Origin: Escherichia phage 1-6bf
Sequence record: OR983334.1
Direction: 5' to 3' (one strand)
Length of the DNA: 64,000 bases
Numbering within the stretch: position 1 is the first letter of the stretch; each line of letters begins with the position of its first letter. The position numbers and the translations under genes are program-made. Positions 9,371-33,085 of this stretch are shown here, one piece after another. The notes under the pieces were generated by a model, which searched no databases, was not told where the DNA came from, and saw only the letters and a program-made list of their open reading frames with translations.

Positions 9371-9379
9371 TATACATTA
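9371..9379 (-). promoter_or_regulatory. TAATGTATA late-promoter-like motif
   Basis: exact 9-mer on - strand in loop of an intergenic hairpin about 40 nt upstream of the 1474-aa gene; same 9-mer recurs upstream of another late gene. Confidence 0.35.
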
Positions 9380-9399
9380 TAGAAGGCAGGACTTAGGTC

Positions 9400-11055
9400 T
9401 TATTGCGTGAACCAGCTAGTGTCTTCGACAGCTGATAAAGCACCATTAAGCTTAGGATTGGTTGCTGCACCACCAACATACTCTTCCGCTTCATCAGAGA
9501 AAACACCGAGAGGGTCATAGAAACCGCCAGAAGGAATTGCACGGTTAACCAATGCAGTAGCTCTCTTCTTATCCATCTTAGAACCAATATATGCTTCGAT
9601 GGTAGCTTTCTTAGCATCAGCAACACCCTTCATAGCAGAGGTATAACCAACGTTAGCTTGTTTACGAGCATAAGCAAGAGCAGCATCAGTAGGACGCCAT
9701 CCTGACTTAAGAGCGAACTTATTTCCTACACGGATAAAAACTGATGGGTCTTCTGCGAAATGGCCCAAGTCCTCTTCAGTAAGAGATCGGGTAGAACCGA
9801 TTTCAGCCCTTGCGGAGTTCATAATAGCCTGCATGTAAGCAGAACGAGCCGTCTGGTAATCTTTATCCTTAACAGCTTTATCAGCCAAATCTAAGTCTTT
9901 GTTAGACTGGTTAAATAGACCACCCTTCTCAGCCCACTGCTTAGCAATTGTACCTTCAGCTGTGTTCTGAGCGTTACGAATCTCTTTCGTGGGGAAGTTA
10001 AAACTCTGAGCAGCTTGTTCAGCACGTTCAGCCTTAACTTTATCACGATAGCCAATCAACTCTTTCTGACGTTCAAAGTTCATATCAGTTCTCTTTTCAG
10101 CAGCACGACGAGTTTCCTCAGCACGTTCACGCATAGCCTGCTCTTGAATCTGTTGACGTCTATCCCATTCAGCATTCTGCCGTTCTTCACGAGCAGCATA
10201 CAACGCTTCTTTCTGAGCAGGGTCTACAGCTTTCATCTTCAGCAGAGATGGGTCTCCGTTAGCAATAGCAGCTGCGATTGAGTCTTGAGAGAAACCTTGT
10301 TCAATAAGGGCATCACGGTTAGCTTCTAGTTGCTTCTTAGTCTCATCTTGATTAGCCATTCCCTGACCAATCTGGAAAGCTTCGATAGGAGATTTACCTG
10401 ACATGATTGAAAGACCTACACCCATCAAACCTGTGTAGAAACTAGAGTTCTGATAGAATGGTTCTTTCTGTAGTTTATTCCAAGCTTCTGAAGGATCTTT
10501 AGCTTTAGCAACTTGCAAAATATCATTGTTAACACGTTCTTGATCTTTAGCACGAGTAGCAGCAGCCATTCCATCACCAGTGTCTTGTCCTTGAGCAAGA
10601 GTGTTAATCACACCTTGTGCCTGTTCCACCTGAGAAGGAGTAAACTCCATAGAACCAGCTTCTAGTGGTTTAGGGGGAGGTGTTACCGGAAGAGGGTCAC
10701 TAGGCATAAGCCCTGCATCTTGTAAACCTTGATCAGTGGATAGGTTAGGATTAGCCACTACAGGGGCTGGTGCTCCAATGTCAATACCCTGAAGACTGGT
10801 AGGGGTTCCTTGATTCTGCTGTTCCATAAGACGTTGCTGGAATCCAGGATTAATCATAGCATTCTGATCTTCTTCTGCCTGAGAGACAAGACCCGCAAGA
10901 GATGAAGGTACAGCAGGACGTTGGTACATAGAAATGTCTGCTGTCTGAGTCGGTCTAGCCATATAAGGAGAGGCCGAAGCCGCTCCTGGATTAACACCAT
11001 AGAAAGTATTTCTCGGGTCACGACTTCTAACCTGAGCGTAAGTTGTCTGTTGCAT
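9400..11055 (-). CDS. virion internal protein (Q-rich)
   Basis: 551 codons, AGGAG RBS, in run of tightly packed structural genes. Confidence 0.5.
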   Translation of the reverse strand: MQQTTYAQVRSRDPRNTFYGVNPGAASASPYMARPTQTADISMYQRPAVPSSLAGLVSQAEEDQNAMINPGFQQRLMEQQNQGTPTSLQGIDIGAPAPVVANPNLSTDQGLQDAGLMPSDPLPVTPPPKPLEAGSMEFTPSQVEQAQGVINTLAQGQDTGDGMAAATRAKDQERVNNDILQVAKAKDPSEAWNKLQKEPFYQNSSFYTGLMGVGLSIMSGKSPIEAFQIGQGMANQDETKKQLEANRDALIEQGFSQDSIAAAIANGDPSLLKMKAVDPAQKEALYAAREERQNAEWDRRQQIQEQAMRERAEETRRAAEKRTDMNFERQKELIGYRDKVKAERAEQAAQSFNFPTKEIRNAQNTAEGTIAKQWAEKGGLFNQSNKDLDLADKAVKDKDYQTARSAYMQAIMNSARAEIGSTRSLTEEDLGHFAEDPSVFIRVGNKFALKSGWRPTDAALAYARKQANVGYTSAMKGVADAKKATIEAYIGSKMDKKRATALVNRAIPSGGFYDPLGVFSDEAEEYVGGAATNPKLNGALSAVEDTSWFTQ

Positions 11056-11068
11056 ATTTATCTCCTAA

Positions 11069-12037
11069 TTAAGTACTAGCCAACCCACCGATTACACCCC
11101 CAGCTAATGCACCCCAAGGCCCAAAGGAAGAACCTGCTGCTGCACCACTCATAGCTCCACCAAGGAAACCACCTTTGCCACCAGATGTTTTAGTAGTTGT
11201 AGTTTGTCCGAGAGCGCCGTTAAGTACACCTGCTGCACCGAGTTGGTTGTTGATATCCTGCCATCCCCAATTAGCTGCATTCTGAGCATTCTGGTAGGCA
11301 TTATCATATTCATTCTGTTGTTGCTGTTGTTGCTGCAACCCTGCATTCCATTGATTCATCATTTGCTGTTGAGACAAATTAGCACCCTGTTGACCTAGGT
11401 TAGAAAGGTTAGAACCAATATTAGAAAGACCAGAGAGAGCAGCTGCCTGATTCTGTCTATTACCAGAGAGGATGCTTTCAGCTTGGCTGATAGCCGAGTT
11501 ATATGCACTATTGGTAATATCTGTTGCTTGCCCTTGCATCTGATTCAGAGCATCACCTTGGGCAAAAGATTTAGCCATACGAGCACCTGAACCTTGTTGA
11601 CCGGCAAACTGTTGAGCTAATTGAGGAAGAGCATTACGTGCTAGGTTCTGTTGAACTTGTTCATTATTAGCTGTAATGGCTGCTTGCACAGCGTCATCAT
11701 CATACAGTTGACCAGCGAGAGCACCAATCTGTTCTCCAGTAATACCACCTTGTCCAGAGAGACTCTGATAGCCTTTATAGGCATTATCCAGATACCCTAA
11801 CCCTTGACCTGCTGCATCCATGTATTGCTGTGAGAGAGTGCCTAAAGCGCCAGATTGTGCTAAGTTATTAAGTGCCTCTGTCTGATTATTATTAAACCCT
11901 ATATTGTCACGATAAACATAATCCCCTGAACTAGTATTACCAATCTGTTGGTTAAGCTGGTCAATATACTGTTGAATGTATTCAGGGCGAATCATTTGGG
12001 AAGTAGTTTTACTACCCCCACCTCCGAAAAGTCCCAT
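11069..12037 (-). CDS. Gln/Asn/Gly-rich virion protein
   Basis: low-complexity Q/N/G-rich 322-aa ORF, AAGGAG RBS; similar N-terminus (M-x-LFG) to the next gene. Confidence 0.5.
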   Translation of the reverse strand: MGLFGGGGSKTTSQMIRPEYIQQYIDQLNQQIGNTSSGDYVYRDNIGFNNNQTEALNNLAQSGALGTLSQQYMDAAGQGLGYLDNAYKGYQSLSGQGGITGEQIGALAGQLYDDDAVQAAITANNEQVQQNLARNALPQLAQQFAGQQGSGARMAKSFAQGDALNQMQGQATDITNSAYNSAISQAESILSGNRQNQAAALSGLSNIGSNLSNLGQQGANLSQQQMMNQWNAGLQQQQQQQNEYDNAYQNAQNAANWGWQDINNQLGAAGVLNGALGQTTTTKTSGGKGGFLGGAMSGAAAGSSFGPWGALAGGVIGGLAST

Positions 12038-12049
12038 ATCAAATCTCCT

Positions 12050-13102
12050 TTAGTTTGCTCCAAATGCCCCTAAGACACCACCTAAGATATTACTACCTGC
12101 TGTGGATAACCAGTTAGACTGACCTTTCTGTTGAGAAAGATTAGAACCTCCAATCATAGGACCAGCCATTCCAGATTGCCCACCTGAGTTGTTATAGGAA
12201 CTCCAAGCATTCTGAGTCTGTTGGTTAGGAGAGAAAGCACCCATACGACCTGCAATACCTAATCCAGTGATACCAGCACCGAGAATCTGCTGTCCTGTGT
12301 TAATACCCGGAGCGGCATTCTTAATTGTGTACCCAGCCATTGGGCTTACACTGTTTAATACATTAAGCTGGTTGTTAAGCTGATTCCACCCATACTGCCT
12401 AGAGCCAATAGCATTCTGCCAATTAATGTCAGCTTGAGCTTGATCTTGTCGCTGTTGTAAATTACCAGCCAAGAGTTGATTCTGGATAGCTTGTTGGGTT
12501 GCCTGAACACCTTGTGCACCAAGATTAAGGTTCTGTCCAGCTAACCCCAACTGAGCACCAAGTAAGCCTCTCTGGAAGTTTTGGTCTTGTTGAAGGGCAT
12601 TAATTCCCATATTCTTTCCATTGATAGTTCGAGATAGATTTGTATTAGCACCATTCAAAGCAGCACCCTGAGCAGCAGCTCTACGAAGAGAACCTGAGTC
12701 AGAACCATTTCCGAGAGATACGTTGGAAGCTGCTTTGCTAGTAGCTTGAGCTAAAGCTGAATTGTTCAAACCTTTGCTAAAATTATTAACACCATCAGCT
12801 GTAACCCCACCACTGTTGACAATATTCTGATACTGCTGTGCAAGAGAGTTTAATTGGTCCAACCCTTGCTGTGTACGAGGTGTGTACATATCAGCCAATT
12901 GCTTCTGAGTAGTAGAAGCTGCTAAGTTATTCAGAGCACCTTGTTGGTTGCCATTAAACCCAGCCAGTTGTTGGGAGATGAATCCCGGATCGTTGTTCTG
13001 CATATTCTGAGCATTAGCAACAATCTGCTTCAGCAGGGCATCAACCTGAGAGGAAGGGGCCACTGTGATTTTGCTAGAAGCTGATTTTCCAAATAAAGAC
13101 AT
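12050..13102 (-). CDS. Gln/Asn-rich virion protein (paralog-like of preceding gene)
   Basis: 350-aa Q/N-rich ORF with AGGAGG RBS. Confidence 0.5.
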   Translation of the reverse strand: MSLFGKSASSKITVAPSSQVDALLKQIVANAQNMQNNDPGFISQQLAGFNGNQQGALNNLAASTTQKQLADMYTPRTQQGLDQLNSLAQQYQNIVNSGGVTADGVNNFSKGLNNSALAQATSKAASNVSLGNGSDSGSLRRAAAQGAALNGANTNLSRTINGKNMGINALQQDQNFQRGLLGAQLGLAGQNLNLGAQGVQATQQAIQNQLLAGNLQQRQDQAQADINWQNAIGSRQYGWNQLNNQLNVLNSVSPMAGYTIKNAAPGINTGQQILGAGITGLGIAGRMGAFSPNQQTQNAWSSYNNSGGQSGMAGPMIGGSNLSQQKGQSNWLSTAGSNILGGVLGAFGAN

Positions 13103-13121
13103 AAGTCCTCCTTAAAGATTA

Positions 13122-20550: not shown

Positions 20551-20559
20551 TATATATTA
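20551..20559 (-). promoter_or_regulatory. TAATATATA variant of late motif abutting RBS
   Basis: TTAATATATAGGAG directly upstream of start of the small membrane protein gene. Confidence 0.3.
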
Positions 20560-20597
20560 ACCTTTCATTCATATTGAATTCATTATCTGTCTCACCT

Positions 20598-20678: not shown

Positions 20679-23600
20679 TTATTTTTTCTCTAGCAGTTCC
20701 AGTCGCTTGATAATATCCTGCAAGCAAGACACTATCGGAGAGATGAACTCACCGTAGCGAAGACCAAGCTTACCGTCCTCACCTTCAACGTACCCACCGA
20801 AGTCGGAGATTCCCAACTTGTCTACGAGATCCTTAACTTCCTGTGCGATGAATCCATAGTGCGTACGTTTACCCGGTACTTCCGTAATAACTTGGCGAGT
20901 TTTAGGAACGGTTACTTTCTCCATCAACGGTGTTTTGATTGTTCCAATGACATTACCTAGCTCATCACGCAGATCAACCTCATGGAATACTGGACGCTCT
21001 ACTTCCTTGTCAACGAACTTACGGACGTAATAGACTTCATCTCCATCAACAACACGTTCGTGGACTTCTTCAGTTGAAACAACCTTTTCTACCACCTGAC
21101 GTTCAATCTCCTCTACACCATCTTCAATCTCTTCTACAATATTCCCACCAACAATGTTTTTGTAAGAAACAGGGTTTAGGCCCAGAATAAAGTCTGTAGA
21201 TAGATTGGATCCTTGAACTTCGGTTTTTGTCGTCCCATCAGAAGTCTGGATAGTAGCGTTCGATGACCATATCTGTGACCACCTATTCCCAGACTTACCA
21301 CACGAATAGATGTTATCTACATATGGATACATCGCGGCGTTAACACCTACCTCGGAGTGGAACACAACCTTACCTGCACCTTTAGACTTAATAGTTAACG
21401 ACGCATCCGGTGTAGATCCACCAGAGACTGTAACGGTGGCGTTGCCATTCCTGTTGTCCAGCATGATTTGTGGGTTAGAGGTTTGGCTATAGGGTACATA
21501 TAACGGCCCGTTCCCGTAGTTACCACCGAGGGTTACATCTCCATTGGCTGCGGAGATAATGCTTCTTCGCATCTGCCCGTTATCTTCCCAACCAGATCCA
21601 ATGTAGAGTGGATACTGCTCATTCGCTGGGTTACTAGCAGCAGCGTGCAATGCGTAATATCCACTATTATTGGCAATGAGACTAATATTTTCCTCAAAGC
21701 CAGCATCATTGATACGATGAACCCGAAGTGCACTGTTGAGGTTGTTAACTGTACCCCAGAATTTATATTCTGTTGATGCTGAATCCCCCGGAGCAGAACT
21801 AAGGGTAACATGCTGAGGGTCTGTAAAAGCCACTACGCGGTAGTCGACACCATTAATAGTCATTGTCTGAGGTACTGATGCGTCGGGAATCACAAACGGA
21901 TCACCACTAATGCGGGTTACAGTAGTGCCGGATACACTGCATACACCACTGCCGTGGTAGTAACACAAGCTGTACGAGTGGGTTGCATTTGATCCCCAAG
22001 TAACAGGTGACCCATTGATATTTTTAACAGTAAAACCATCTGCTGTTACGGATGCTACAGTATAAAGTGCATCATAGATAGCAATAGGTTTACCGATCGC
22101 TTCAGATGTAATGCTAGCACCAGACAGGATTTTTACAGCATTGCTGCCTGAGATTGTCTGACATGACCCGGATTTAGAACTTGGATATATCGCCATTTCT
22201 GTAGGGTGAGGCCATTTAGATGCACGAACACCTAACCACCCAGAACTACCATCGGTAAACATTCTAATACCATCAGCACCGTTATATGGCACAGCCCCAC
22301 CAATCTGAATTCCGGTTGACGTCACTCCGTTATCACCGAAAACAGCAGATGTGGTCATCCTCTCAGTAGTTCCTGGCTTAGCCCATTGGGAAACTTTAGT
22401 TGTCCCATCCGACATAATGCGATTTACAATAGCACCATAGAATTTACCAGCACCAGTAAATGTCACTGGTTCTTCAAATACGAAACGGCGACCGTAACAT
22501 TCTACATTACTATTGAGGAGGTATGTCCCGCTTGGAACAATGATCTCACGACTTTTAGGTAGAAGTGTGTTGGCAGAAATAAAGGAACTTGCAGCATCCG
22601 TAGTGCCGTTGTATTTATCACCAAGAAAGTCAAGAATGCTACTGAATTGTGCATTTATGTCATGCTGAGTACGAGCCGCAGCGCCAGCGAAAGGAGCCTT
22701 GACCCCAATTAGTGCATCACCTTGAGCTACGTTAGACGTATTAGAAAGCTGAGCTGTTGGTACACGACTATCCGCATTAGTATTAGCAGCAGCAGCAGCA
22801 TCTTTAGCTTCGTTAATCTTCGTTTCAAGTAATGCAGTTTCAGTAGACAGTTGACCGAGAGCTACTGGTTCGTTGTTAGCTACTGCATCAGGAATCACTG
22901 GAGACTGCGTGAAAGTAACCTTGTTAGTCATTGAGGTTATATCAGAGTTAGCCCCACTTTTAGCAGCAACAAGAGACATACGCGCTGCATCTGCTGTTGT
23001 TGCCCCAGTGCCACCCTGTCCAACCCCTAACGGTATCCAACCTGTTCCAGTGCTGCTGCCCCATGCACCGTTATCCTGGATACGCAAGCGGTTGGAACCG
23101 TTGGCTGTAAGGAAATCGCTATAACTACCACCTTGTATTACGCGGTTGACACCGAGATTCTCTCTGGCACTGACCACCGTTGTTGCCCCCGTACCTCCAT
23201 TAACAATAGGTACAGTGTCCAAAGTAGAAATAGGTCCAAGTCCTAGATTAGTTCTTGCACCAGCAGCATCTCTTGCCCCTGTACCACCTTGATTTACTTT
23301 AAGAGCAATAGGTCCTGTACCTGTTGAGGAATAACACCCCCAAGTGTCGCCATCTTTGTTTACGTATAAAAAAGCGCTACCTGTTCCATTACGTAGCTGA
23401 GTTTCACCGCTAGTTAACTGAGTAAGACGGTCAACTGAGAGATTTATACGAGCATTAGCAGCATCTTTTGCCCCTGTACCACCTTGAGCTACAGATAGGG
23501 CAGTAGTCAACCCACGAATCTGGTTAATATCGTTGTTAACGCCAGAAGCAGCTGCGCCAGTAACTTGACTTACTGTGTAGTCTCCAGCAGCCGGAATAAC

Positions 23601-24275
23601 AGGACCAGTACGACCATTGAAACTAACAACTGCTGGAACAAGCTTAGCAATCTCACTCATTGGAGTTCGATACAAACCACCATTGTCTTTGTCCACAAAG
23701 AACCCATAATCATCAGCTACAGGAGTGCTTATAGCTACATCCCCAATATCAGAGATTGTACCATCTGTTCCATCTTTACCGGGCTGGCCTTCAGGGATAC
23801 CAAAGGAGAAAACACCTGTACTATTATCAAAACTCCCAGTTGCGGGTGCTCCCGGAGGAAGGGTTGTGGCAACAACCGACATATTAGAAACCTTATCTAA
23901 TTGAGTAAGAACATCTTGCACTGCTTGGTTGGCTCGATCTGTTGCTGCATTAGCTTCGCCAATAGCAGTATTAGTGTTGTCAACAGCTTCGACCGTTTGC
24001 TGAATAAGACCAAGAAGCATTTGGTTTTGGTTTTCAAAATCAAATTTGAGTTGTTCAATATCTTCTTTTAATAAACTACCTTCTGCATAGAGTCTTTCTA
24101 CTTCCTTAAGAATTTCATCAATGCTGTTGTAGTTCTTTTGAGAAAGCATCGCCCAATACTTGGAATCAGCTGCGTATTCAGCTGCTGATTTGTAAGCACC
24201 GATAGAGCCTTCTGTAGCACCAAACTGACCTACATTATTAACTGCATTAGGTGCTGAGTTGTTGTAACTGATCAT
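20679..24275 (-). CDS. tail fibre with C-terminal intramolecular chaperone (peptidase S74-like) domain
   Basis: 1198 aa; four QGGTGA(K/R/T)xAAxARxNL fibre repeats; C-terminal HYGFIAQEVKDL motif typical of autoproteolytic chaperone domains. Confidence 0.85.
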   Translation of the reverse strand: MISYNNSAPNAVNNVGQFGATEGSIGAYKSAAEYAADSKYWAMLSQKNYNSIDEILKEVERLYAEGSLLKEDIEQLKFDFENQNQMLLGLIQQTVEAVDNTNTAIGEANAATDRANQAVQDVLTQLDKVSNMSVVATTLPPGAPATGSFDNSTGVFSFGIPEGQPGKDGTDGTISDIGDVAISTPVADDYGFFVDKDNGGLYRTPMSEIAKLVPAVVSFNGRTGPVIPAAGDYTVSQVTGAAASGVNNDINQIRGLTTALSVAQGGTGAKDAANARINLSVDRLTQLTSGETQLRNGTGSAFLYVNKDGDTWGCYSSTGTGPIALKVNQGGTGARDAAGARTNLGLGPISTLDTVPIVNGGTGATTVVSARENLGVNRVIQGGSYSDFLTANGSNRLRIQDNGAWGSSTGTGWIPLGVGQGGTGATTADAARMSLVAAKSGANSDITSMTNKVTFTQSPVIPDAVANNEPVALGQLSTETALLETKINEAKDAAAAANTNADSRVPTAQLSNTSNVAQGDALIGVKAPFAGAAARTQHDINAQFSSILDFLGDKYNGTTDAASSFISANTLLPKSREIIVPSGTYLLNSNVECYGRRFVFEEPVTFTGAGKFYGAIVNRIMSDGTTKVSQWAKPGTTERMTTSAVFGDNGVTSTGIQIGGAVPYNGADGIRMFTDGSSGWLGVRASKWPHPTEMAIYPSSKSGSCQTISGSNAVKILSGASITSEAIGKPIAIYDALYTVASVTADGFTVKNINGSPVTWGSNATHSYSLCYYHGSGVCSVSGTTVTRISGDPFVIPDASVPQTMTINGVDYRVVAFTDPQHVTLSSAPGDSASTEYKFWGTVNNLNSALRVHRINDAGFEENISLIANNSGYYALHAAASNPANEQYPLYIGSGWEDNGQMRRSIISAANGDVTLGGNYGNGPLYVPYSQTSNPQIMLDNRNGNATVTVSGGSTPDASLTIKSKGAGKVVFHSEVGVNAAMYPYVDNIYSCGKSGNRWSQIWSSNATIQTSDGTTKTEVQGSNLSTDFILGLNPVSYKNIVGGNIVEEIEDGVEEIERQVVEKVVSTEEVHERVVDGDEVYYVRKFVDKEVERPVFHEVDLRDELGNVIGTIKTPLMEKVTVPKTRQVITEVPGKRTHYGFIAQEVKDLVDKLGISDFGGYVEGEDGKLGLRYGEFISPIVSCLQDIIKRLELLEKK

Positions 24276-24284
24276 AAAATCTCC

Positions 24285-25034
24285 TTATACTCTAGAGGTA
24301 CGTATTCCATAAATATCTGGCAGGCTACTCTGAAGTCTGGTCATGTTGTTGGGTATCGCAATAGGAGAACCTGAGTACTCCTGTTTCTTATCTTGCTCAA
24401 CCATCTCATCAAGAATAGCCTTACCTAACGCAGACCATTTTTGAACACCGTTATCATCCTGAACAAAAAGACATGCATGCCTAAGGGTAAAGTATAGAAG
24501 AAGTTCTGGAGCAATCGTAAGTATTGCACTAGTATCTTCGTCTGCGTGAAACTCCGGAGGATCTGCATAATAGCTTAGAATTACAGAGTTCTCTGCTGGA
24601 ATAGCAGGACTTCCATCTTCAGGGTAAACAGGGGTATCAGCATCAATCAGTGGATAGAACAAGAAACGACTTCCGAAACGAGCAAAATTAACAGGTTGAT
24701 TATTCCAGTGAGAGGGGTTAATTGTGCCATGCTGTTTACGATAGCTTATCTCTTCTGGGGAAGTTACTTGGAATATTGCTCCATCTTTAGCTCTCATTAT
24801 CCATTGAGCTTGCAAGTAGTCCGGTGGGATGAATGCTATACCATTCTTGATACTCAGATACACTTCCTTTTCCAGAGGAGGGATACGTAAGTTGCGATAA
24901 ATCTCTTTCTCTGCAAAATTAATAAAGTTTGGAATTTGATTAACAAATTCGTCATCGTCCCTATCTGCCCAGAGGGCCACGGCTTTCTTTAGCCACCCAT
25001 AGGTATTGATGGGATATTGGACGTCAGGCATCAT
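24285..25034 (-). CDS. virion protein (head-tail adaptor candidate)
   Basis: 249-aa ORF, GGAGG RBS, between capsid and fibre genes. Confidence 0.4.
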   Translation of the reverse strand: MMPDVQYPINTYGWLKKAVALWADRDDDEFVNQIPNFINFAEKEIYRNLRIPPLEKEVYLSIKNGIAFIPPDYLQAQWIMRAKDGAIFQVTSPEEISYRKQHGTINPSHWNNQPVNFARFGSRFLFYPLIDADTPVYPEDGSPAIPAENSVILSYYADPPEFHADEDTSAILTIAPELLLYFTLRHACLFVQDDNGVQKWSALGKAILDEMVEQDKKQEYSGSPIAIPNNMTRLQSSLPDIYGIRTSRV

Positions 25035-25536
25035 AATAAACCTCCTTCCAGTTTACGCCTTTAGTAATGAGAGATATTGTGCTTTTAGAGACCCCAAACT
25101 TTCTAGCTAAGGCTCTAGCTCCAAACTCTCTATCTCTCGGTTTGTAGTTCTCCAAACAAAAGAGAACTTGCTCTTTAGTGAGTTTGGAATTAGGGTTATC
25201 CTCAAGACTCCTAGGTGTTGAGAGGCCTGTTTCAAAAGCATGTGTACAATTTTCTTGTTGAGTACACCACTCTAGATTCTCAATCCTGTTATCGTCTTTT
25301 ATTCCATTCTTATGGTTGACACAGTCCTTCCCTTCTACCTTAGGAAGAAAGAGTTCAGCTATGACCCTATGCTCTAAATATGATTTCTTTTTAAAAGTCA
25401 CTTTACGATAACCTCTGTCGCCAATACACCCGGCACGTTGTCCTTTCTGCTTATTAAAGATGTTACTCATAGACCAGAAAAGATGCCCTGTATTTGGATC
25501 ATAGGTAAAAGCTTCTCTGAAATCTGGCATTGCCAT
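25024..25536 (-). CDS. HNH homing endonuclease with C-terminal HTH
   Basis: YLEHRVIAELF ... VNHKNGIKDDNRIENLEW ... QQEN (HNH_3-like) plus LARKFGVSKSTISLI HTH; sits between capsid and tail genes and overlaps next gene by 11 nt. Confidence 0.8.
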   Translation of the reverse strand: MAMPDFREAFTYDPNTGHLFWSMSNIFNKQKGQRAGCIGDRGYRKVTFKKKSYLEHRVIAELFLPKVEGKDCVNHKNGIKDDNRIENLEWCTQQENCTHAFETGLSTPRSLEDNPNSKLTKEQVLFCLENYKPRDREFGARALARKFGVSKSTISLITKGVNWKEVYYDA

Positions 25537-25569
25537 AGGTTGTCCTCCTTGTTATATGTAGACAAAGAA

Positions 25570-25578
25570 TATACATTA
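25570..25578 (-). promoter_or_regulatory. TAATGTATA late-promoter-like motif
   Basis: exact 9-mer on - strand about 33 nt upstream of HNH ATG, just downstream of the capsid terminator. Confidence 0.4.
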
Positions 25579-25600
25579 CACACTAGCTTGTATAGGTCTT

Positions 25601-25630
25601 AAAACGAAAAAACCCCGCCCGAAGGCAGGG
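25601..25630 (-). terminator. rho-independent terminator after capsid gene
   Basis: CCCTGCC-TTCG-GGCGGGG hairpin followed by TTTTTTCGTTTT on - strand. Confidence 0.55.
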
Positions 25631-25637
25631 TCTAGTT

Positions 25638-26161
25638 TTAAGCAGGTGTTACACCAGTAAAAGTGCATGTTGCATTGATGGACGGGTCAGCTGTCAAACT
25701 TGCTTGAACAGTAACTTCGCCACTTGCAGCAGCATCTAAGGTTAACGCACCAGCGGCGCTTACTGTACCAGCTTCTATAGGAGTTACAACAAACGTGTAA
25801 TCCGCAGCAGCAGAATTAGTTACAGTAAACATGGTAGTGAAATTAGTGGAGGAACCACCAGTTTTACCCGTAATTGGACCCTTAGCTACAATAGTAGGAG
25901 CAGGAGCAACAATTTCAGAAATGGTTGCTGTACCAGAAACACCTTCTAAAGTTGCAGTAATGGATACATCAGTGGATTGAGACGCACTCGGAGCAGTATA
26001 CAAACCCGACTGAGTGATAGAACCACCGCCTGTCACTGACCAAGTAAAGCCAGTTGTTTCGGTAGAACCATCACTTTTCTCCGCGCTTGCAGTGAACTGC
26101 CGAGTAGCCCCTGTCTCTAGACTTGATAAAGACGCAGGGCTAACAGTCACACTGTCTACTG
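25638..26161 (-). CDS. Ig-like (Big_2-type) capsid decoration domain, expressed as -1 frameshift extension of the major capsid protein
   Basis: Ig-like Thr/Ser-rich ORF is open in the -1 frame across the capsid stop; slippery heptamer G_GGA_AAG lies 4 codons before the capsid stop. Confidence 0.55.
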
Positions 26162-27220
26162 TTACGCCGCCACCTTTCCCGCAGCAGTGAACAGAACGCC
26201 GGAAGCATACGGGTTGCGGTGACGCAGACCAACTTCCATTTCAATCATCCACTTCTCGTAAGAACCGTCTTTAGCCAGTTCAGTACGTTTCGGAGCACGC
26301 AGAACCATCTGAGTCCAGTCAGCGCTACGGAAGAAGTAAACTGCATCGGTAGGCATCCAACGGTTAACGATGATTTTGTAGCTCTGGCCCAGCGGGTCAG
26401 TGATGCTGTTAACTTCGTAGATGAACTGCTTGGTGTTCTCAAAGATACGCTTACGTGAACCCTGAGTATTTTCTTGCAGACCAGCGAAGATCTTAGCATG
26501 AGCTGGGTTAATCATGATGATATCTGCTTCAGAACCAGCGGTATACAGTTGCAGAGTCATATCAAAGATATCAGCTTCGTCAAAACCAATGTTAGTGGTC
26601 GGGTTAGAAGCATTCTGTGCAACTTTAACAGTTACTGCACCAGTATCTGGGTCAGCAGGACCATTCTTGGTCTTGTCAACAACACCACCAGCCAGACCGC
26701 CGTGAGCACACAGGAACTGGAATGCACCAGTCTTACGAGCTGCATGAGTGTCGTTCAGACCAACAGTTGCAGGATCAGTTGCAGAGTTAGTCAGGTACTG
26801 GTCAGCCAGAACGTCGGTACGAGCCTGACCGGATAGAAGGATTTTCTCGAGGTCACGCTTGATCTCTTTACCTTTCTTCTCCAGCTGATACATCAGTTCA
26901 CGACCACGACCGTAGTTAGCGGTGGTGTTAGCAGTATCAGAAACGCGAACAACCTTACGCAGAATCTGAGTAACGTTAGATTTGATAACAGTCGGTTTCA
27001 TTTCGCCGTCTTCAGCACGAGAGCCTTCGACGTGTGCGTTATTACCGTCAACGCTTGCCAGTGCATCGGTCTGCCAGCTAAAGATAGTCTGGTTAATAGA
27101 CTCTTTACCGGTCATGGATACGAACGGGGTATCCTGAGGGGACAGAACAGAAATCCAGTTAGCAAAAGAAAGTTTTTTACCATTCTGGTCATACGATACA
27201 AATAAAGTTGGATTAGCCAT
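26162..27220 (-). CDS. major capsid protein
   Basis: 352 aa, between scaffold-like and decoration genes, strong terminator downstream, GGAG RBS. Confidence 0.7.
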   Translation of the reverse strand: MANPTLFVSYDQNGKKLSFANWISVLSPQDTPFVSMTGKESINQTIFSWQTDALASVDGNNAHVEGSRAEDGEMKPTVIKSNVTQILRKVVRVSDTANTTANYGRGRELMYQLEKKGKEIKRDLEKILLSGQARTDVLADQYLTNSATDPATVGLNDTHAARKTGAFQFLCAHGGLAGGVVDKTKNGPADPDTGAVTVKVAQNASNPTTNIGFDEADIFDMTLQLYTAGSEADIIMINPAHAKIFAGLQENTQGSRKRIFENTKQFIYEVNSITDPLGQSYKIIVNRWMPTDAVYFFRSADWTQMVLRAPKRTELAKDGSYEKWMIEMEVGLRHRNPYASGVLFTAAGKVAA

Positions 27221-27235
27221 GTTATGTTAGCTCCT

Positions 27236-27246
27236 ATACTATTAAT
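27236..27246 (-). promoter_or_regulatory. TTAATAGTATA variant of late motif abutting capsid RBS
   Basis: TTAATAGTATAGGAG immediately upstream of capsid ATG. Confidence 0.3.
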
Positions 27247-27261
27247 AATTTAATTTGTCGA

Positions 27262-28338
27262 TTAATCTACGAGGAATTTGAATGCGTCTTCGTGACTAAC
27301 GCGACCCTCTGCGAATGCCTTGGCAACCTTAGCGTTGTCGGGCTTATTGGAAGTGCGAGACTTTGCAGCATCAGACTTCACAACCTTGCGTGGAGCACCG
27401 GGACGTTTAATCTTAGCCATCACCTGTTGCTTACCTTTATCAAATTGGTATGCTTTGTGGAGAGCTAGGAAAATAGACGGACGGTTTTCCTTCAATACTT
27501 CTTCTTCAGTAGCACCTAAGTCAATTGCGTATTGCATTAAGTTTTGATATAAGTTTTCATCCCAATTTGGAATCTCACGTTTCAGAATATTAACACATTC
27601 AATACTCTTGGCTTGGAAAGCTTCCTGCTCTTTAGCTGCTGCTTCCTGCTTAATACGGACCTGAGCCTGTTCAAGCTGTTGACGGCGAGCTGTGTACTTC
27701 TCTAGGAAACGTTTGTTTTCAACATATGCTTGAGGATCTTCTACTGCAAGCTTGTCCCAATCAAAACCGTTATAATCTTCAATTACTCGGTCTGCTTCTA
27801 AAGACGCTAGTTCTAATACATCCTTCAAACCTACTACACGTTCCTCAAATGCTTCCATATGACGCTGAAGAGTAGTCTCTCGTTCCGTCATATCGGCACC
27901 AGTAAGATAGCCATTAGAAAGTTCTTCAATAGTCATCTCACGTCCGTCAGGAAGGGTGATAACGGTTTCGTAGTCTACATCAAAGACTTCACCTTCACCG
28001 TCAGCAGAATCATCTTCATATTCTGCATCGCTTGAATCTTCTTCCTCTTGCTCTTCTGCTTCAGAGGAGTCTTCTTCATCTTCTTCGACTTCGCCTTCCT
28101 CTTCACGATCTTCCCAACCATCTTCATCTTCGAACTTAAGCTCATCGCTTTCACCGAGAAGGTCGGTATCAAAGTCGAAATCGTCACCGTCTTTTTCCGG
28201 GAACTCATCGTCAATGTCCACTTCTGGTTCTTGTTCAGATTCTAATCGACCGAGTTCTTCTTTGAAAGAACCTTTCAGGTCATCCAGTTGGAGGAAAGAT
28301 TTAAAATCGTTCGGGTCAATATAATTATCTTGTGGCAT
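27262..28338 (-). CDS. scaffolding protein
   Basis: highly acidic N-terminal half (E/D runs) and helical C-terminal half; located between portal and capsid. Confidence 0.65.
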   Translation of the reverse strand: MPQDNYIDPNDFKSFLQLDDLKGSFKEELGRLESEQEPEVDIDDEFPEKDGDDFDFDTDLLGESDELKFEDEDGWEDREEEGEVEEDEEDSSEAEEQEEEDSSDAEYEDDSADGEGEVFDVDYETVITLPDGREMTIEELSNGYLTGADMTERETTLQRHMEAFEERVVGLKDVLELASLEADRVIEDYNGFDWDKLAVEDPQAYVENKRFLEKYTARRQQLEQAQVRIKQEAAAKEQEAFQAKSIECVNILKREIPNWDENLYQNLMQYAIDLGATEEEVLKENRPSIFLALHKAYQFDKGKQQVMAKIKRPGAPRKVVKSDAAKSRTSNKPDNAKVAKAFAEGRVSHEDAFKFLVD

Positions 28339-28574
28339 TATGAAACATCTCCTGCACTATTGATAGCAGCTTTTATGACCTCTTTTAAGCTACCCACCAT
28401 TTTATACTTTTGATAACAATCTTCGCGTTTCTTATTCTCATGAGGTTCTGTTTGAACTATCTCTGTCATGAGTCTTTCTTTCAATGCCTCTAATGCTGCG
28501 TCAAGACTGCCGTTAAGGTTGAGAGCCGCCAAAGCGGCGGCGTGCTCTTTATTAAATTGATGTCTAATGTTCAT
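28338..28574 (-). CDS. hypothetical protein
   Basis: 78-aa ORF with AAGGA RBS between portal and scaffold. Confidence 0.4.
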   Translation of the reverse strand: MNIRHQFNKEHAAALAALNLNGSLDAALEALKERLMTEIVQTEPHENKKREDCYQKYKMVGSLKEVIKAAINSAGDVS

Positions 28575-28583
28575 TCGACGTCC

Positions 28584-30827
28584 TTAGTTTTTACTTCCAA
28601 GACGTTTGCCTGGAATCCGTGAATCTTTGAGAGAAGCTTGTTGCTCTTTCTTAGTTACATTAGCTTCTTTCTTTTGGAGTTCCAAAGTTTTATCCTGAAC
28701 ACGAGCTTGCTGAACAATCTTCTCTTGGTCTACCTGATGAGACATAACCATCTGCAATTCTTTCAGTACAGATTCATACTGACGGACCTGCTGTTGCATA
28801 AGAGCTAACTTGTGCTTAGCTTGTTCCAGAGTAGCATTGTTATCTTCTTTACGGTTTTCCAGAGTCATTGCATCTGCTGCATTTTCTTGCTTGAATTGCA
28901 ACTCTTCCTGACGCAGACTTAATTCATCCGCAGCTTTCTGCTGTTCGAATGTAGTACGTTCACGTTGGTCGAATGCATCAGCAATCATCTTCTGAGAAGA
29001 AGCCTGTACGTTCTCAACCTGTGCTTTAGTCATCTCGAGCTGGAGGATTTCCATCGGAGAAGGTTCTGGAGGCTGATACTGTTCCAGAGGCAGAAGGTAT
29101 TTATGTGTGTCCTTAATGCCCATCAACTCAAAGATCTGTGCAGTCATGTAACGATCTTGCTCCAAACCAAAGAGAGGTGCTAACTGTGCATCTGCTGCAA
29201 TCAGCTGCTTCAAGCTAATCAGTTTCTGTGCACGTTCTGCTTTCTCATTAGGAGAAATGGCTACAACAACTTGAAGGTTGTGACGAGCTGGCAATTGTTT
29301 CGGATTTACCTGAATCATACCACGAGGGGTTTGTACCTCGATAGGAACTTCACCATTTTCTCTGATAAGATTGTAAATACCACGCATCAATTCAACCATA
29401 CCATTGTGAGCAATGTTACGACATACCATACGGAGACGGTTCTGTGCAGCATTCATCATCAAGCCTACGGTTGCATAAGCGTTATCATTCTTAAACACAT
29501 CAGGGTTGATACCCATGCCAAGTTTAGTTACACCTGTACGTGTCTCTTTAAGCTCCTCAGACATACCTAGGAGGCCATCAATACCTTGAGGTAAGTTATG
29601 GTATGGGAACAGGTCAATAGCGTCCTGACGTTCCATTTCAACCACTCCACCGGGACGGTTATCAAGCAGAGAGCGACGATCGTATGCACCAACAAGAGCT
29701 TTGTATCGACCATAGTTAGCATTGTTGACGTTATCAATATAACCACGAACTAACGCGGTACGTAAATCTTGAATATCTTTCGTAATGTCATAGACCGATT
29801 GACCATAGAAGGAACCCGGAATCGGATACGGGCAGAAGGTTACAAACGGAATGTGAGTCACTTCTTCAGTGTGAAGGATATGCTCACCAGCTTGAATAAC
29901 CTGATAGAGTTTAGACTCTTTATTCTTATCTAGAACACCAGTACGAATGTAGTGCTCATAAACCCAAACCATAGAAGCAATGTCTTCGGTATCTGTACCA
30001 ATATCAGCATCAATATCCTGACGCCAGTCAGTACGAGACCAAGCAACTGTAGATTGAGTAGTGTCCATCGTGTCTGTCCAGTCGTTGAATGCTTCAATCT
30101 CATCTTTAGGGAAGCCCATGGCAACCAGATCTTCTTTAGAACGACGTACACGATGGCAGAAGTATTGTGCATCTGCAAAAGAGGTAGCATGTTCGTCAAC
30201 AAAGATTTGCTCTGAAGGAACATATTCAACTTTCACACGTTTGACAGTTTGTTCGTAAGTAACTTTAACATCTACTGTACCATCTTCATTTTCTTCAGTG
30301 AAGATTTCCAGATTCTTGAGTCCACCAGCTTCTAGTCCCTGAACATATGCAGCCAATGCTTCCGGTGGTACACCTTCAGCCTCTTCAGTTTGAGTAGAAG
30401 TTTGCTCATCCCAATAATATTTGATAAAAGAGTTACGAGTAACCAGACATTCTTGTGCAGCAGAAGAGATAATATTGTATCCCGGATTATCACGCAGAAG
30501 AATTTGGTTAACTAATTTAGTTGCTACATCAGCAGCATCAGAATCCTGTTGGTTGTCAGCTACGAAAGTAACTGCTTCATCACCAGAACAGAATACGTTA
30601 ATAATATCTTGCAATGTACCGTTAACAGATTCCCAAACAGTACGATCTACCCAACTAGAGCTGCCAGCAGTTACTGGTGCAGGTAAGTTACCATAGAAAT
30701 ATTCCCAAGCTTCACGAGCATAGCCCTTAACAGCTGTGTCTACGTAGCCTTGAGCATAATTAAAACGACGTTGAAGGTCAACACGTAACTCGTCCAACAC
30801 CTCTTCACTATATTTTTGCTTAGCCAT
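28584..30827 (-). CDS. portal protein
   Basis: 747 aa, immediately downstream of terminase and upstream of scaffold/capsid; GGGAGAG RBS. Confidence 0.7.
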   Translation of the reverse strand: MAKQKYSEEVLDELRVDLQRRFNYAQGYVDTAVKGYAREAWEYFYGNLPAPVTAGSSSWVDRTVWESVNGTLQDIINVFCSGDEAVTFVADNQQDSDAADVATKLVNQILLRDNPGYNIISSAAQECLVTRNSFIKYYWDEQTSTQTEEAEGVPPEALAAYVQGLEAGGLKNLEIFTEENEDGTVDVKVTYEQTVKRVKVEYVPSEQIFVDEHATSFADAQYFCHRVRRSKEDLVAMGFPKDEIEAFNDWTDTMDTTQSTVAWSRTDWRQDIDADIGTDTEDIASMVWVYEHYIRTGVLDKNKESKLYQVIQAGEHILHTEEVTHIPFVTFCPYPIPGSFYGQSVYDITKDIQDLRTALVRGYIDNVNNANYGRYKALVGAYDRRSLLDNRPGGVVEMERQDAIDLFPYHNLPQGIDGLLGMSEELKETRTGVTKLGMGINPDVFKNDNAYATVGLMMNAAQNRLRMVCRNIAHNGMVELMRGIYNLIRENGEVPIEVQTPRGMIQVNPKQLPARHNLQVVVAISPNEKAERAQKLISLKQLIAADAQLAPLFGLEQDRYMTAQIFELMGIKDTHKYLLPLEQYQPPEPSPMEILQLEMTKAQVENVQASSQKMIADAFDQRERTTFEQQKAADELSLRQEELQFKQENAADAMTLENRKEDNNATLEQAKHKLALMQQQVRQYESVLKELQMVMSHQVDQEKIVQQARVQDKTLELQKKEANVTKKEQQASLKDSRIPGKRLGSKN

Positions 30828-30888
30828 CGATTCTCTCCCTCGGTTGATAGCTTAAATAAAAGAAGGGAGGACAAACCTCCCCCTTACT

Positions 30889-32430
30889 TTAGTAACTCTG
30901 ATTCCATCTGCTTACGTTTGCCTCATACAGAGAAGCACTTCCGTAGCTAACATCATGTTTAGAGCGACCACGATGTGTAACAGAGCACGCTGAATAGCGC
31001 ATTGCATCCATTAAGTCATCATATTCTTTAATAATCTTACCAACCTTACGGTGATATCTAGCTTTCTCTTCGAATAGCTTAGCGTTAGCGGCTGTGTTAA
31101 AGATTTTAAAGCGTCCACTCATCATTCTTTCTCGGATATCTGTGATTCCCGGTTCTACAAAGAAGTTCTTTTTACCATCCATTCCAATTTTGTTGTAGAA
31201 GGTCTCACTCTGTACGTTAACTCCTGCATTCTTATAGAATTGAGCAACAGATGAGCCACTACCTTTCTCAATATTGTCCGCATCGTGCGGTAGGATGACA
31301 GGAATCCACTGACCACGACCATTAATAGCTGGAGCATGATACACTGGAGTAAAGCCACCTTCTTTATATGAGTCGTAAACATAGATAGTATCCGTGTTTG
31401 CGTCGTAAGCTGTCCAAACAGCAGCAGTTGGGTGATCAATACCAATATCAATTGCACAGACACGTTTCCACGTATCGGGAATTTCGAATGGCTCACATTT
31501 AATTGTGTCATCCGATACATCATATATCAAACCACTTCCTAACAATGGCATACCTTTCGAACGCATTTCTAATTGCCACGCTGGAATACCTTCAGTCATA
31601 TCTTTTATATCTTGGTCAGTGATATGTCCACCTAGGTCTACATGAGCATCCCACCAAGAAGCATTCTGGAAATATAGAGAACCTGTGTTCTCATCCCCTT
31701 CACCTTTCATAAATTTATCTACCAGTTCCGTTAAACCGTTCTCTGGTGTAGCTGTAATTGTAACTAGACCTTTAGTTGTGAGTGTACGTGTGACGCACTG
31801 TGCGAATATAGCCATAGACTCGTATGGATCTTCTTCGTCTAACCAAATGTAGTCAACTGTCGCACCCATCAATGTGTGTTCACCCTGTTGGGTTGAACGG
31901 AATTCTAATGTACTTAAACCGTCAAACTCTCCTCTTTCATTTTGATGTTTGATTTGTACGATTTGAAGTTTGTTACCATCTCGTTCTATCGTGTCAATGA
32001 CGATAGCATCACGAGGAATGACACCTGTCCCTAATAAGTTTGTATCCTTTCCGATAGGTGTACCAAACAATTCCTTTTGCAATACTTTCCTTGTGGAATC
32101 CCCTGTAATACCAACTGCCCATGCTAAGATAGGTCTTTTAAATTTATATCCTGTCCACCAAGTTGGGTAGCGACCTGTGACATGACAAGCAAACTCGTAT
32201 GCCTCGCTGTAAGATTTACCAACACGGTTCGCTGCACACAAGAATCTAAAGCGATGCTTCAATCCTGCTGCATAAAATTTCTTTTGGAAGTCGTACGCCT
32301 TGAAAGACAAAATCCTATTATACTTCCTCCATTGGTCACGCTCTTTCAACATATTCAATAGTGCTTTCTTTTCGTCTACACTAAGGTTGTTACCAGTTAG
32401 AGCTTCATAAATTTGTTTATCTAATGACAT
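30889..32430 (-). CDS. terminase large subunit
   Basis: Walker A-like AANRVGKS, Walker B-like IWLDEED, C-terminal nuclease-like region; GGAGG RBS. Confidence 0.9.
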   Translation of the reverse strand: MSLDKQIYEALTGNNLSVDEKKALLNMLKERDQWRKYNRILSFKAYDFQKKFYAAGLKHRFRFLCAANRVGKSYSEAYEFACHVTGRYPTWWTGYKFKRPILAWAVGITGDSTRKVLQKELFGTPIGKDTNLLGTGVIPRDAIVIDTIERDGNKLQIVQIKHQNERGEFDGLSTLEFRSTQQGEHTLMGATVDYIWLDEEDPYESMAIFAQCVTRTLTTKGLVTITATPENGLTELVDKFMKGEGDENTGSLYFQNASWWDAHVDLGGHITDQDIKDMTEGIPAWQLEMRSKGMPLLGSGLIYDVSDDTIKCEPFEIPDTWKRVCAIDIGIDHPTAAVWTAYDANTDTIYVYDSYKEGGFTPVYHAPAINGRGQWIPVILPHDADNIEKGSGSSVAQFYKNAGVNVQSETFYNKIGMDGKKNFFVEPGITDIRERMMSGRFKIFNTAANAKLFEEKARYHRKVGKIIKEYDDLMDAMRYSACSVTHRGRSKHDVSYGSASLYEANVSRWNQSY

Positions 32431-32591
32431 ACTTCCTCCAGTTTAAAAATAGAAAAGGGAAAGTCCCTTCGTCAAAGAACCTCCCCTCTCCACTACAAGG
32501 GTACACTGCAAAAGAACATCGTGGCAATAAAACTATAACAATCCTCAGATTATTAATCAGATGATCTTCGACAGCTCCCTGTTTCCTTTAC

Positions 32592-33065
32592 TTAACTCTC
32601 GTCCGCTTCCTCCCCCTTTTCAGCGTCCTCAGAGTTGTCTTCTTCTGGAGGCATAACGTCGATACCAAGTGCTCCAGTCAAGAAGTCCTTGATTTGTGCA
32701 TTCAATGATTCTTCGTTGATTACATTCTCTTCCTCAATCTTAACTTCAACAGAGGCCGCCTTAGGATATACCAGATCTGCAACTTTTGATGCAGCCTTGA
32801 ATCTAAGATCGGGTGGAATATTAGGATCTTCGTAAATTTGAATTAACACTTCATCAGGAGACAAATGACTTGCAGCAACACGGTCCAACATTAATTGTGT
32901 CAGTTTACCTCTACTACCTCTGGGTCGTCCGAATTTATTTCCCTTTTGAAACTTCCCATTGCTTGGGTTCATACCACGGCTTTCGAGTTCTTCCGTTACT
33001 CCGGGTAATCTTCCTGTAATCTCAGCTACCTGTGCAGGCGTGAGTTCTCCGTTTTCTCCAAACAT
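32592..33065 (-). CDS. terminase small subunit candidate
   Basis: 157 aa directly upstream of TerL; HTH-like LTPAQVAEITG; acidic C-terminus. Confidence 0.45.
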   Translation of the reverse strand: MFGENGELTPAQVAEITGRLPGVTEELESRGMNPSNGKFQKGNKFGRPRGSRGKLTQLMLDRVAASHLSPDEVLIQIYEDPNIPPDLRFKAASKVADLVYPKAASVEVKIEEENVINEESLNAQIKDFLTGALGIDVMPPEEDNSEDAEKGEEADES

Positions 33066-33076
33066 TTTATACTCCT

Positions 33077-33085
33077 TCTACATTA
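33077..33085 (-). promoter_or_regulatory. TAATGTAGA variant of late motif
   Basis: GATAATGTAGAAGGAG upstream of TerS-candidate ATG, after a hairpin + T-run. Confidence 0.3.

Follow-up and report, generated by a model that had tools for sequence, protein, structure and literature searches.

Likely orthologues of the phiEco32 late promoters P6, P13 and P26 in Escherichia phage 1-6bf

A short motif recurs upstream of minus-strand genes in a 64,000-nucleotide stretch of the Escherichia phage 1-6bf genome (OR983334.1; hereafter the window), and we could relate it to the already known gp36 late promoters, which makes the finding an ordinary one. Judged by their sequence and position, the elements at 9371-9379, 25570-25578 and 33077-33085 (minus strand) almost certainly serve as -10-type elements in late promoters of the phiEco32 type, namely P26, P13 and P6. 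A previous sequence-only reading had proposed five such sites as promoters for a phage-encoded sigma factor. Orthology and an identical gp36 uphold this idea for the three best sites, and it fails for the near variants in front of the capsid and holin genes. The promoter elements and the proteins predicted to act on them are as follows.

9371-9379, minus strand: TAATGTATA, -10-type element of the predicted P26 orthologue; exact match, listed as P26 in PMC8948821; start predicted at about 9364
25570-25578, minus strand: TAATGTATA, -10-type element of the predicted P13 orthologue; exact match, listed as P13 in PMC8948821; start predicted at about 25563
33077-33085, minus strand: TAATGTAGA, -10-type element of the predicted P6 orthologue; published form TAATGTAgA; start predicted at about 33070
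1018-1662, plus strand: sigma factor gp36, predicted reader of the promoters; 214 of 214 residues identical to phiEco32 gp36
58187-58435, plus strand: gp79; 81 of 82 residues (99%) identical to phiEco32 gp79, matching PDB 9m7y chain G

By sequence comparison, the window belongs to a phiEco32-like podovirus (Kuravirus). It is approximately 96-98% identical to the published genomes of phiEco32-like coliphages, its region 24000-34000 shares 95.7% identity with phiEco32 and 98% with phage FH3, and its gene order is that of phiEco32 (gp37-27, gp26-1, gp128-70). According to PMC8948821 and PMC12276001, which cite Pavlova et al. 2012, six gp36 promoters of phiEco32 have been mapped by experiment (P6, P13, P26, P40, P58 and P68), and these promoters are transcribed by the E. 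coli RNA polymerase core together with gp36. The experimentally derived consensus is reported as tAATGTAtA (PMC4331800, PMC8948821, PMC4281155), so that the phiEco32-like late-promoter consensus mentioned in the sequence-only reading is indeed published. Transcription in phiEco32 is reported to start 6-8 nt 3' of the 9-mer (PMC8948821), and the starts predicted above are taken to be the same. The three sites are orthologous in position to the mapped promoters upstream of genes 6, 13 and 26, and the 9-mers given for these promoters in the supplement of PMC8948821 (TAATGTAgA for P6, TAATGTATA for both P13 and P26) are exactly those found at the orthologous positions of the window. Their flanks match phiEco32 at 1677-1685 (P6), 9101-9109 (P13) and 26014-26022 (P26), the last being identical over at least 45 nt upstream and at least 51 nt downstream of the 9-mer. 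The description of the motif as 'late' suits P6, P13 and P26 but is too narrow, since the middle promoters P40, P58 and P68, which lie outside the 64-kb window, carry the same element.

The sigma factor that had been noticed at 1015-1662 matches chain F of PDB 9m7y (E 1e-145), a solved open complex with gp36 and gp79 chains. It keeps all gp36 DNA-contact residues named in PMC12276001 (E79, H80, Y83, R84, W90, S91, S94, N95, Y186 and R187). In the 2025 cryo-EM open complex, gp36 reads AATG at -14 to -11: its sigma-2-like N-terminal domain recognizes A-14, A-13 and T-12 in the duplex, and the DNA opens from -11, where the same domain holds G-11 through hydrogen bonds with E79 and H80 and where mutation compromises transcription (PMC12276001). 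The sigma-4-like C-terminal domain makes contacts at -37 and -34, within the -35 region, as seen on P68 (PMC12276001). The gp79 protein of phiEco32 inhibits the sigma-70 holoenzyme and co-activates the gp36 holoenzyme; by displacing sigma-70 region 4 it shuts off host and early transcription, and by bracing the C-terminal domain of gp36 it stimulates gp36 promoters. All three window sites have the core AATGTA at -14 to -9. Among relatives, the promoter motifs are retained where the phage sigma is only 79-87% identical and the spacers vary, and 98 phage records contain the P26 and P13 regions, exactly as many as encode a homologue of gp36.

The argument is carried by position and orthology, and motif enrichment alone would have demonstrated nothing. 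The two exact minus-strand copies of TAATGTATA at 9371-9379 and 25570-25578 are real, but their number does not exceed chance: 0.76 copies are expected, and 21 of 100 shuffles contained two or more. Enrichment over the whole window is not significant either for exact or for one-mismatch copies (20 observed and 19.3 expected for the latter), and AATGTA overall is not enriched in the window (52 against 43). When shared 9-mers were sought de novo across the late gaps of the window, TAATGTATA did no better than in shuffles and the top k-mer common to the gaps was a piece of a terminator; when gaps were compared by their best ungapped match over 32 nt, P13 with P26 did not exceed shuffles either. 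In phiEco32, the gp36 motif is reported to escape standard motif finders (PMC4331800). Significance came solely from the published consensus tested a priori, to which orthology adds support: the late-strand intergenic gaps, with 837 nt or 0.65% of strand positions, hold three of the four matches to TAATGTA[TG]A (P-value about 1e-6, binomial test). The composite pattern TRRNA-N18-nAATGTA recovered all six phiEco32 promoters (8 matches, 1.1 expected), a circular result, as the same six promoters had served to define the pattern.

Chance-level counts would also be seen if the matches were AT-rich 9-mers arising by chance, or pieces of sigma-70 -10 hexamers read by the host holoenzyme. TATAAT does overlap the 9-mer at P26, P6 reaches a sigma-70 score of 9/12 (TTGGGA-N16-GATAAT, overlapping the 9-mer), and the authors of the SU10 study suggest that sigma-70 may transcribe the P6-equivalent genes as well (PMC4281155). 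We give this explanation hardly any credence, because the orthologous phiEco32 promoters have been shown to need gp36, the motifs of the sites are conserved across diverged phages while spacers change, and P26 and P13 lack an acceptable -35 hexamer. A scan for TTGACA-like and TATAAT-like hexamers 16-18 bp apart missed both of them and returned only P6, as a weak 9/12 match; dual use of P6 early in infection is possible. The plus-strand early genes at 35155, 37202 and 37650 do have the consensus sigma-70 promoters previously attributed to such genes, and the reported absence of the motif upstream of plus-strand genes was borne out, with zero T-AATGTA-type copies in the plus-strand intergenic gaps of the window.

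Several further candidates were considered. Intragenic late-strand near-matches at 7703, 8617, 14602, 15836 and 34621 are unconserved and look like chance, and the near-match at 22501 is without homologous sequence in relatives. The distant metagenomic relatives L008-L013, whose capsid proteins are 55-66% identical, do not carry TAATGTATA at equivalent places and lend no support; in L008-L010 its place is taken by nAATGAATA, and L011 appears to resemble phage 7-11. The promoter features annotated in phage SU7 lie on or beside ribosome-binding sites, none of them at a TAATGTATA site, and we took them as software predictions and left them out of the argument.

The surroundings of the three gp36-type sites contain putative -35 boxes and terminator-like hairpins.

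9394-9402, minus strand: TAAGACCTA box of P26, at about -38 to -30; its first letters are the gp25 stop codon, and T-38, A-37 and A-34 come from it
9358-9392, minus strand: 15-bp RNA hairpin followed by ATTTTTATTT, terminator-like (hairpin scan and fold)
25593-25601, minus strand: TAAGACCTA box at -38 to -30 of P13, with spacing identical to P26
25610-25633, minus strand: hairpin resembling an intrinsic terminator, which follows the Ig-like gene gp12 and closely precedes P13
33101-33116, minus strand: terminator-like hairpin, whose 3' arm holds the P6 -35 region TGGGA (33104-33108)

P26 is predicted to serve the 1474-aa gp26 homologue; the published P26 is transcribed by the gp36 holoenzyme and stimulated 4-fold by gp79 (PMC12276001). 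The exact copies lie 35 nt (start codon at 9335) and 33 nt (25536) from the downstream genes, within the 30-40 nt previously estimated. Both had also been placed just after hairpins, which is correct for the copy at 25570, whereas the copy at 9371 forms the apex of one: loop and upper stem of the 9358-9392 hairpin (dG -22.9 kcal/mol, z -4.8) are the P26 -10 element itself. In the five phages compared, all cells of this hairpin pair (5/5), and five one-sided changes all keep pairing through G.U. Such changes, found in SU7 and E20-1, argue for selection on the late-strand RNA and, together with the strong 15-bp stem and the T-rich tail, would fit a region that is primarily the terminator of the upstream late operon, with TAATGTATA inside it by accident. 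This is very improbable in our view: with the identical sequence, P26 works in vitro as a gp36 promoter and is stimulated by gp79 (PMC12276001), loop and upper stem are invariant while the lower stem varies, and the start predicted in the 3' arm would yield P26 transcripts without the hairpin. Moreover, the roles of terminator and promoter are not exclusive. In the gp36 literature searched, we found no mention of the P26 -10 element lying at the apex of a terminator hairpin.

The P13 element is kept in nine relatives, and E20-1 reads TAATGTATT. In the TAAGACCTA box of P13, TAAGACC is conserved, and it is the 16-nt spacer that differs in E20-1 and EP335. The first gene downstream of P13 in 1-6bf is an inserted HNH gene, followed by the adaptor gene; this HNH endonuclease, encoded 3' of the capsid terminator, had been recognized from the sequence and matches Pfam HNH_3 (E 6e-13). 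At P6, the near variant TAATGTAGA occurs at 33077-33085 as described, but the gene downstream, taken for a TerS candidate, has no family support and its PHROG match is of unknown function. The P6 element is conserved in relatives, with EP335 reading TAATGTAAG. For a promoter of gp6, the predicted P6 start is oddly placed, 3' of the Shine-Dalgarno sequence and 5' of the ATG of the gp6 homologue.

The two remaining sites of the sequence-only reading are also present in the window.

20551-20559, minus strand: TAATATATA, holin 'variant', which we do not take for a gp36 promoter; A in place of the contacted G at -11
About 27235-27244, minus strand: TAATAGTATA, capsid 'variant'; one-base insertion breaks the register

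The first precedes a membrane protein on the endolysin side, a 72-aa holin according to PHROG. Both variants are unsupported because they depart from the consensus at bases contacted by gp36. If all five sites were gp36 promoters, the capsid and lysis genes would each have a late promoter of their own in front of the ribosome-binding site. The layout is suggestive, as both variants lie directly 5' of a GGAG Shine-Dalgarno sequence like the bona fide P6 (TAATGTAGAAGGAG), the capsid variant is invariant in nine relatives, and GAATGAATAAGGAGTATAAA is combined with a Shine-Dalgarno sequence in this same way in a distant lineage. We nevertheless regard the five-promoter arrangement as improbable. 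Neither variant appears among the six published promoters or in the sets predicted for six relatives (PMC8948821). The holin variant has A at -11, the position where G bonds E79 and H80 and where mutation compromises transcription, and it is not conserved, unrelated sequence taking its place in SU7, E20-1, EP335, L005, L006 and L007. In the capsid variant, the extra base leaves 3 to 5 of 9 consensus mismatches in any alignment, which makes a gp36 promoter there unlikely. The conservation of the capsid gap is uninformative, since its 3' part (TAATAGTATAGGAGCTAA) is invariant and the rest shows small differences only. Translation signals explain the invariance of a part that runs into the ribosome-binding site, and 27235-27244 probably belongs to a conserved translation-initiation region.

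Beyond the -10 element, the three accepted sites resemble each other in the -35 region. Positions -38 to -34 read T-A-A-G-A at P26 and P13 and T-G-G-G-A at P6. All three thus carry, at -37 and -34, the purine and the A contacted by the gp36 C-terminal domain, an extrapolation from contacts defined on P68 only. The TAAGACCTA box, invariant at P26 in phiEco32, SU7, E20-1 and EP335, may by analogy act within the -35 region; it is supported by its conservation and exact spacing rather than by the ungapped-match test. We tentatively propose, while thinking it more doubtful than probable, that a fourth, sub-consensus gp36-type promoter precedes the lysis cassette; with the same reserve, and as a separate proposal, TAAGACCTA may set the late P13 and P26 apart from the middle promoters. 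The box could underlie the timing of middle and late transcription or the dependence on gp79. The candidate for the fourth promoter is a conserved island.

20577-20585, minus strand: TAATGAATT, island conserved ahead of the holin gene, put forward hypothetically as a weak -10 element of gp36 type

This island lies about 30 nt upstream of the rejected site at 20551-20559 and matches the relaxed composite pattern. Its TAATGAA is invariant in seven phages and its flanks vary. A second invariant holin-proximal island, TTTAGnAGT, gives T-38, A-37, G-36 and A-34, with TAGTA at 20604-20608 as the candidate -35 region. The gp36 literature searched contains, as far as we found, no mention of the holin-proximal TAATGAA island or of the TAAGACCTA box of P13 and P26.

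Compared with known systems, the window promoters are of the phiEco32 type and not of the 7-11 type. They share with phiEco32 the same P6, P13 and P26 9-mers at orthologous positions, an identical sigma, a near-identical gp79, matching flanks, and the -37 purine and -34 A; apart from the HNH homing-endonuclease gene between P13 and the adaptor gene in 1-6bf, nothing of substance differs. Salmonella phage 7-11 likewise encodes a sigma that redirects the host core polymerase to late genes (PMC8948821), from promoters at similar genome positions, after terminators and before blocks of structural genes. In contrast, the consensus of its SaPh711_gp47 is bipartite (GTAAtg-N16-aCTA; PMC8948821), its sigma is only about 15% identical, and it lacks a gp79 homologue, a middle class and host shut-off (PMC8948821). 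In the T4 AsiA/MotA system, an analogy drawn in PMC12276001, a small phage protein also disables sigma-70 region 4 and aids a phage specificity factor, but T4 retains sigma-70 with MotA, whereas phages of the phiEco32 type replace sigma by gp36.

As a discovery, the motif has little weight: the consensus dates from 2012, tables of predicted orthologues exist for relatives, and an open complex solved by cryo-EM was published in 2025. A real regulatory motif nevertheless proved recoverable from sequence alone, and the annotation of the 1-6bf genome gains the location of three late transcription units and their promoters. P13 and P26 would restart late transcription directly after, or inside, terminator hairpins, and the late strand would thereby comprise a minimum of three units (gp6 to gp12, HNH/gp13 to gp25, and gp26). 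The two tentative leads, the holin-proximal island and the TAAGACCTA box, bear on how promoters that share one -10 element split into middle and late classes.

The region 24000-34000 shares 98% identity with Escherichia phage FH3 and 95.7% with phiEco32, and matches dozens of Kuravirus genomes (megablast). Comparison of the phiEco32 annotation with the ORF map of the window showed that the two gene orders are circular permutations:

1-4547, + strand: equivalents of phiEco32 gp37 to gp27, middle genes
4911-34706, - strand: equivalents of gp26 to gp1, late (structural) genes
35221-64000, + strand: equivalents of gp128 to gp70, early genes

The sigma factor gene that the sequence-only reading had placed at 1015-1662 is indeed one. 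Its product is identical to phiEco32 gp36 over 214 of 214 residues, matches chain F of PDB entry 9m7y and contains all gp36 DNA-contact residues named in PMC12276001; its true start is probably 1018. The product of ORF 58187-58435 is identical at 81 of 82 residues to gp79, inhibitor of the sigma-70 holoenzyme and co-activator of the gp36 holoenzyme, and matches chain G of the same entry.

Five sites had been proposed as promoters for this sigma factor:

9371-9379, - strand: exact 9-mer TAATGTATA (sequence search)
25570-25578, - strand: exact 9-mer TAATGTATA (sequence search)
33077-33085, - strand: TAATGTAGA (one-mismatch search)
20551-20559, - strand: TAATATATA, holin variant (one-mismatch search)
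about 27235-27244, - strand: TAATAGTATA, capsid variant

As claimed, both exact copies lie on the - strand and 30-40 nt upstream of a start codon (35 nt before the ATG at 9335 and 33 nt before the ATG at 25536). The observation is real, but by count it is not statistically remarkable. The copy number, which had been weighed against chance, is uninformative: exact TAATGTATA is not enriched in the window (2 seen and 0.76 expected, with at least two in 21 of 100 shuffles), nor is it when one mismatch is allowed (20 and 19.3). A de novo search for 9-mers common to late intergenic gaps did not single out the motif, in agreement with the report that standard motif finders fail in phiEco32 (PMC4331800).

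PMC8948821, PMC4331800 and PMC4281155 describe six phiEco32 promoters for gp36-carrying E. coli RNA polymerase, found experimentally upstream of genes 6, 13, 26, 40, 58 and 68. A single conserved element, tAATGTAtA, is common to all six, with transcription starting 6-8 bp downstream. The supplement of PMC8948821 lists these elements alongside predicted equivalents for five relatives:

P6 element: TAATGTAgA
P13, P26, P40 and P58 elements: TAATGTATA in each
P68 element: aAATGTATA

The late-promoter consensus that the sequence-only reading mentioned for phiEco32-like phages is a published one (PMC8948821, PMC4331800). Scanning phiEco32 placed the six elements at 1677, 9101, 26014, 36632, 42937 and 46862. 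Because the flanks of the first three match window positions 33077, 25570 and 9371, respectively, these sites are orthologues of P6, P13 and P26. With the published consensus tested a priori, the window has four TAATGTA[TG]A matches, three of them inside late-strand intergenic gaps, which comprise 837 nt or 0.65% of all strand positions (P about 1e-6). Matches to the P26 and P13 regions come from 98 phage records, equal in number to those encoding a gp36 homologue. The phage-sigma promoter reading thus holds for the P6, P13 and P26 orthologues and not for the capsid and holin variants, which are unpublished and off-consensus. The motif does precede late genes at these three sites but is not late-specific, as the middle promoters P40, P58 and P68 carry the same element; they lie on the opposite strand in ~13.5 kb of phage genome outside the window, between gp69 and gp38. 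Also outside the window, phiEco32 has a second exact TAATGTATA (36681-36712, +), 64 bp from P40 and on the opposite strand. Its -35 region is the same as that of P68 (TGGTAGTAGATAT), and transcription from it would run antisense to gene 41 and the genes that follow.

Recognition has been resolved by cryo-EM at 3.4 Å in an open complex that contains RNA polymerase, gp36, gp79 and P68, where positions -14 to -9 from the start read AATGTA (PMC12276001). In the N-terminal domain of gp36, hydrogen bonds run from N95 to A-14, from S91 to A-13, from S94 to the A opposite T-12, and from E79 and H80 to G-11. W90 and Y83 make stacking contacts at the fork of the bubble, which spans -11 to +2. The -35 region receives a helix of the C-terminal domain, with R187 contacting N7 of G-37 and Y186 the T opposite A-34. 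Mutating contacted bases or contacting residues compromises or abolishes transcription. By displacing sigma-70 region 4, gp79 turns off transcription of host and early genes; its second action is to brace the C-terminal domain of gp36, which stimulates transcription 4-fold at P26 and 3-fold at P68 (PMC12276001). Given the identity to phiEco32, the same gp36/gp79 mechanism would operate here, and structure numbering predicts starts at about 9364 (G), 25563 (G) and 33070 (A).

Upstream of the 9-mer, TAAGACCTA occupies -38 to -30 in both P26 (9394-9402) and P13 (25593-25601), on the - strand and at the same spacing. TAAGACC is invariant in phages with a sigma 79-87% identical, whereas the P13 spacer varies. 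The -35 regions of P6 (TGGGA at this place) and of the middle promoters (TGGTA in P68) differ from this box, a possible upstream element specific to one promoter class. Each of the six known promoters has T at -38, a purine at -37 and A at -34, a pattern circular as a statistic and consistent with the cryo-EM contacts. A third TAAGACCTA, at 934-942 (+), lies directly beside a perfect TATAAT that precedes the sigma gene. Inside the gp23 homologue (12357-12388, -), TAATGTATT with TGGAA at -38 to -34 conforms to the composite promoter pattern; phiEco32, SU7 and E20-1 retain it, and EP335 reads TAATGTACT. This match could be chance plus coding constraint, about 1 being expected.

The P26 motif had been placed just after a hairpin. 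It is instead the apex, made up of loop and upper stem, of a terminator-like hairpin with 15 bp (9392-9358, -; dG -22.9, z -4.8) followed by ATTTTTATTT. Five stem positions differ in SU7 and E20-1, all keeping their pairing through G.U or A-U, which is consistent with an RNA hairpin in transcripts of the late strand. The predicted start falls in the 3' arm, so that terminator and promoter overlap; upstream read-through RNA would fold the terminator and P26-initiated RNA would not.

At P6, the terminator just ahead includes the -35 region TGGGA (33104-33108) in its 3' arm, and a weak sigma-70-like TTGGGA-N16-GATAAT overlaps the site. The start predicted here (about 33070, within 33066-33085, -) comes after the AAGGAG Shine-Dalgarno and before the gp6 homologue's ATG, so P6 transcripts would carry gp6 with a ~5-nt leader lacking the Shine-Dalgarno; no alternative gp6 start codon is apparent. 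The 'TerS candidate' label is not supported, as this homologue falls only in a PHROG of unknown function.

That all five proposed sites are functional is very improbable. The capsid variant TAATAGTATA is invariant in relatives, together with the stretch onward into the ribosome-binding site, and the rest of the 41-nt gap differs only slightly, so its conservation is uninformative. It has an extra base, and 3 to 5 of its 9 positions depart from the consensus in either register. The holin variant TAATATATA lacks the contacted G at -11, and SU7, E20-1, EP335 and three metagenomic relatives have unrelated sequence at its place. Both are absent from the published promoters and unlikely to be promoters.

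About 30 nt upstream of the holin variant, TAATGAA (20577-20585, -) is invariant in seven phages, and a second island, TTTAGnAGT, puts T-38, A-37, G-36 and A-34 in register with it; the spacer and the sequence downstream of TAATGAA vary. These islands (20577-20608, -), which follow the tail-fibre terminator and precede the holin gene, are a tentative candidate for a weak, sub-consensus seventh gp36-type promoter serving the lysis cassette, with the balance leaning somewhat against it. In L008-L010, distant metagenomic relatives from IMG/VR (capsid 64-66% identical), nAATGAATA recurs in late-strand gaps (around 8650, 11500 and 3000). One copy follows a terminator at the position equivalent to P13 and another directly precedes AGGAGTATAAA, a layout like that at P6. 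The sigma factor of these relatives probably uses it as its -10 element, and related sigmas may therefore tolerate A at -10.

An HNH endonuclease gene (Pfam HNH_3; 25024-25536, -) that is absent from phiEco32 interrupts gp13, the adaptor gene, behind its codon 5. It now uses the ribosome-binding site and start (MAMPD...) that belonged to gp13, and adaptor translation begins anew at MMPDVQYP, preceded by a new Shine-Dalgarno sequence. In place of the phiEco32 genes gp14 and gp15 there is one tail-fibre ORF of 1198 aa (20679-24275, -), and the gap downstream has likewise diverged from phiEco32, which suggests a recombinant host-range module.

With matching promoter DNA at three sites and an identical sigma, the feature is already known, its phiEco32 counterpart being characterised experimentally and structurally. 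What remains novel is confined to the box shared by P13 and P26, the island upstream of the holin gene and the predicted position of the P6 start.
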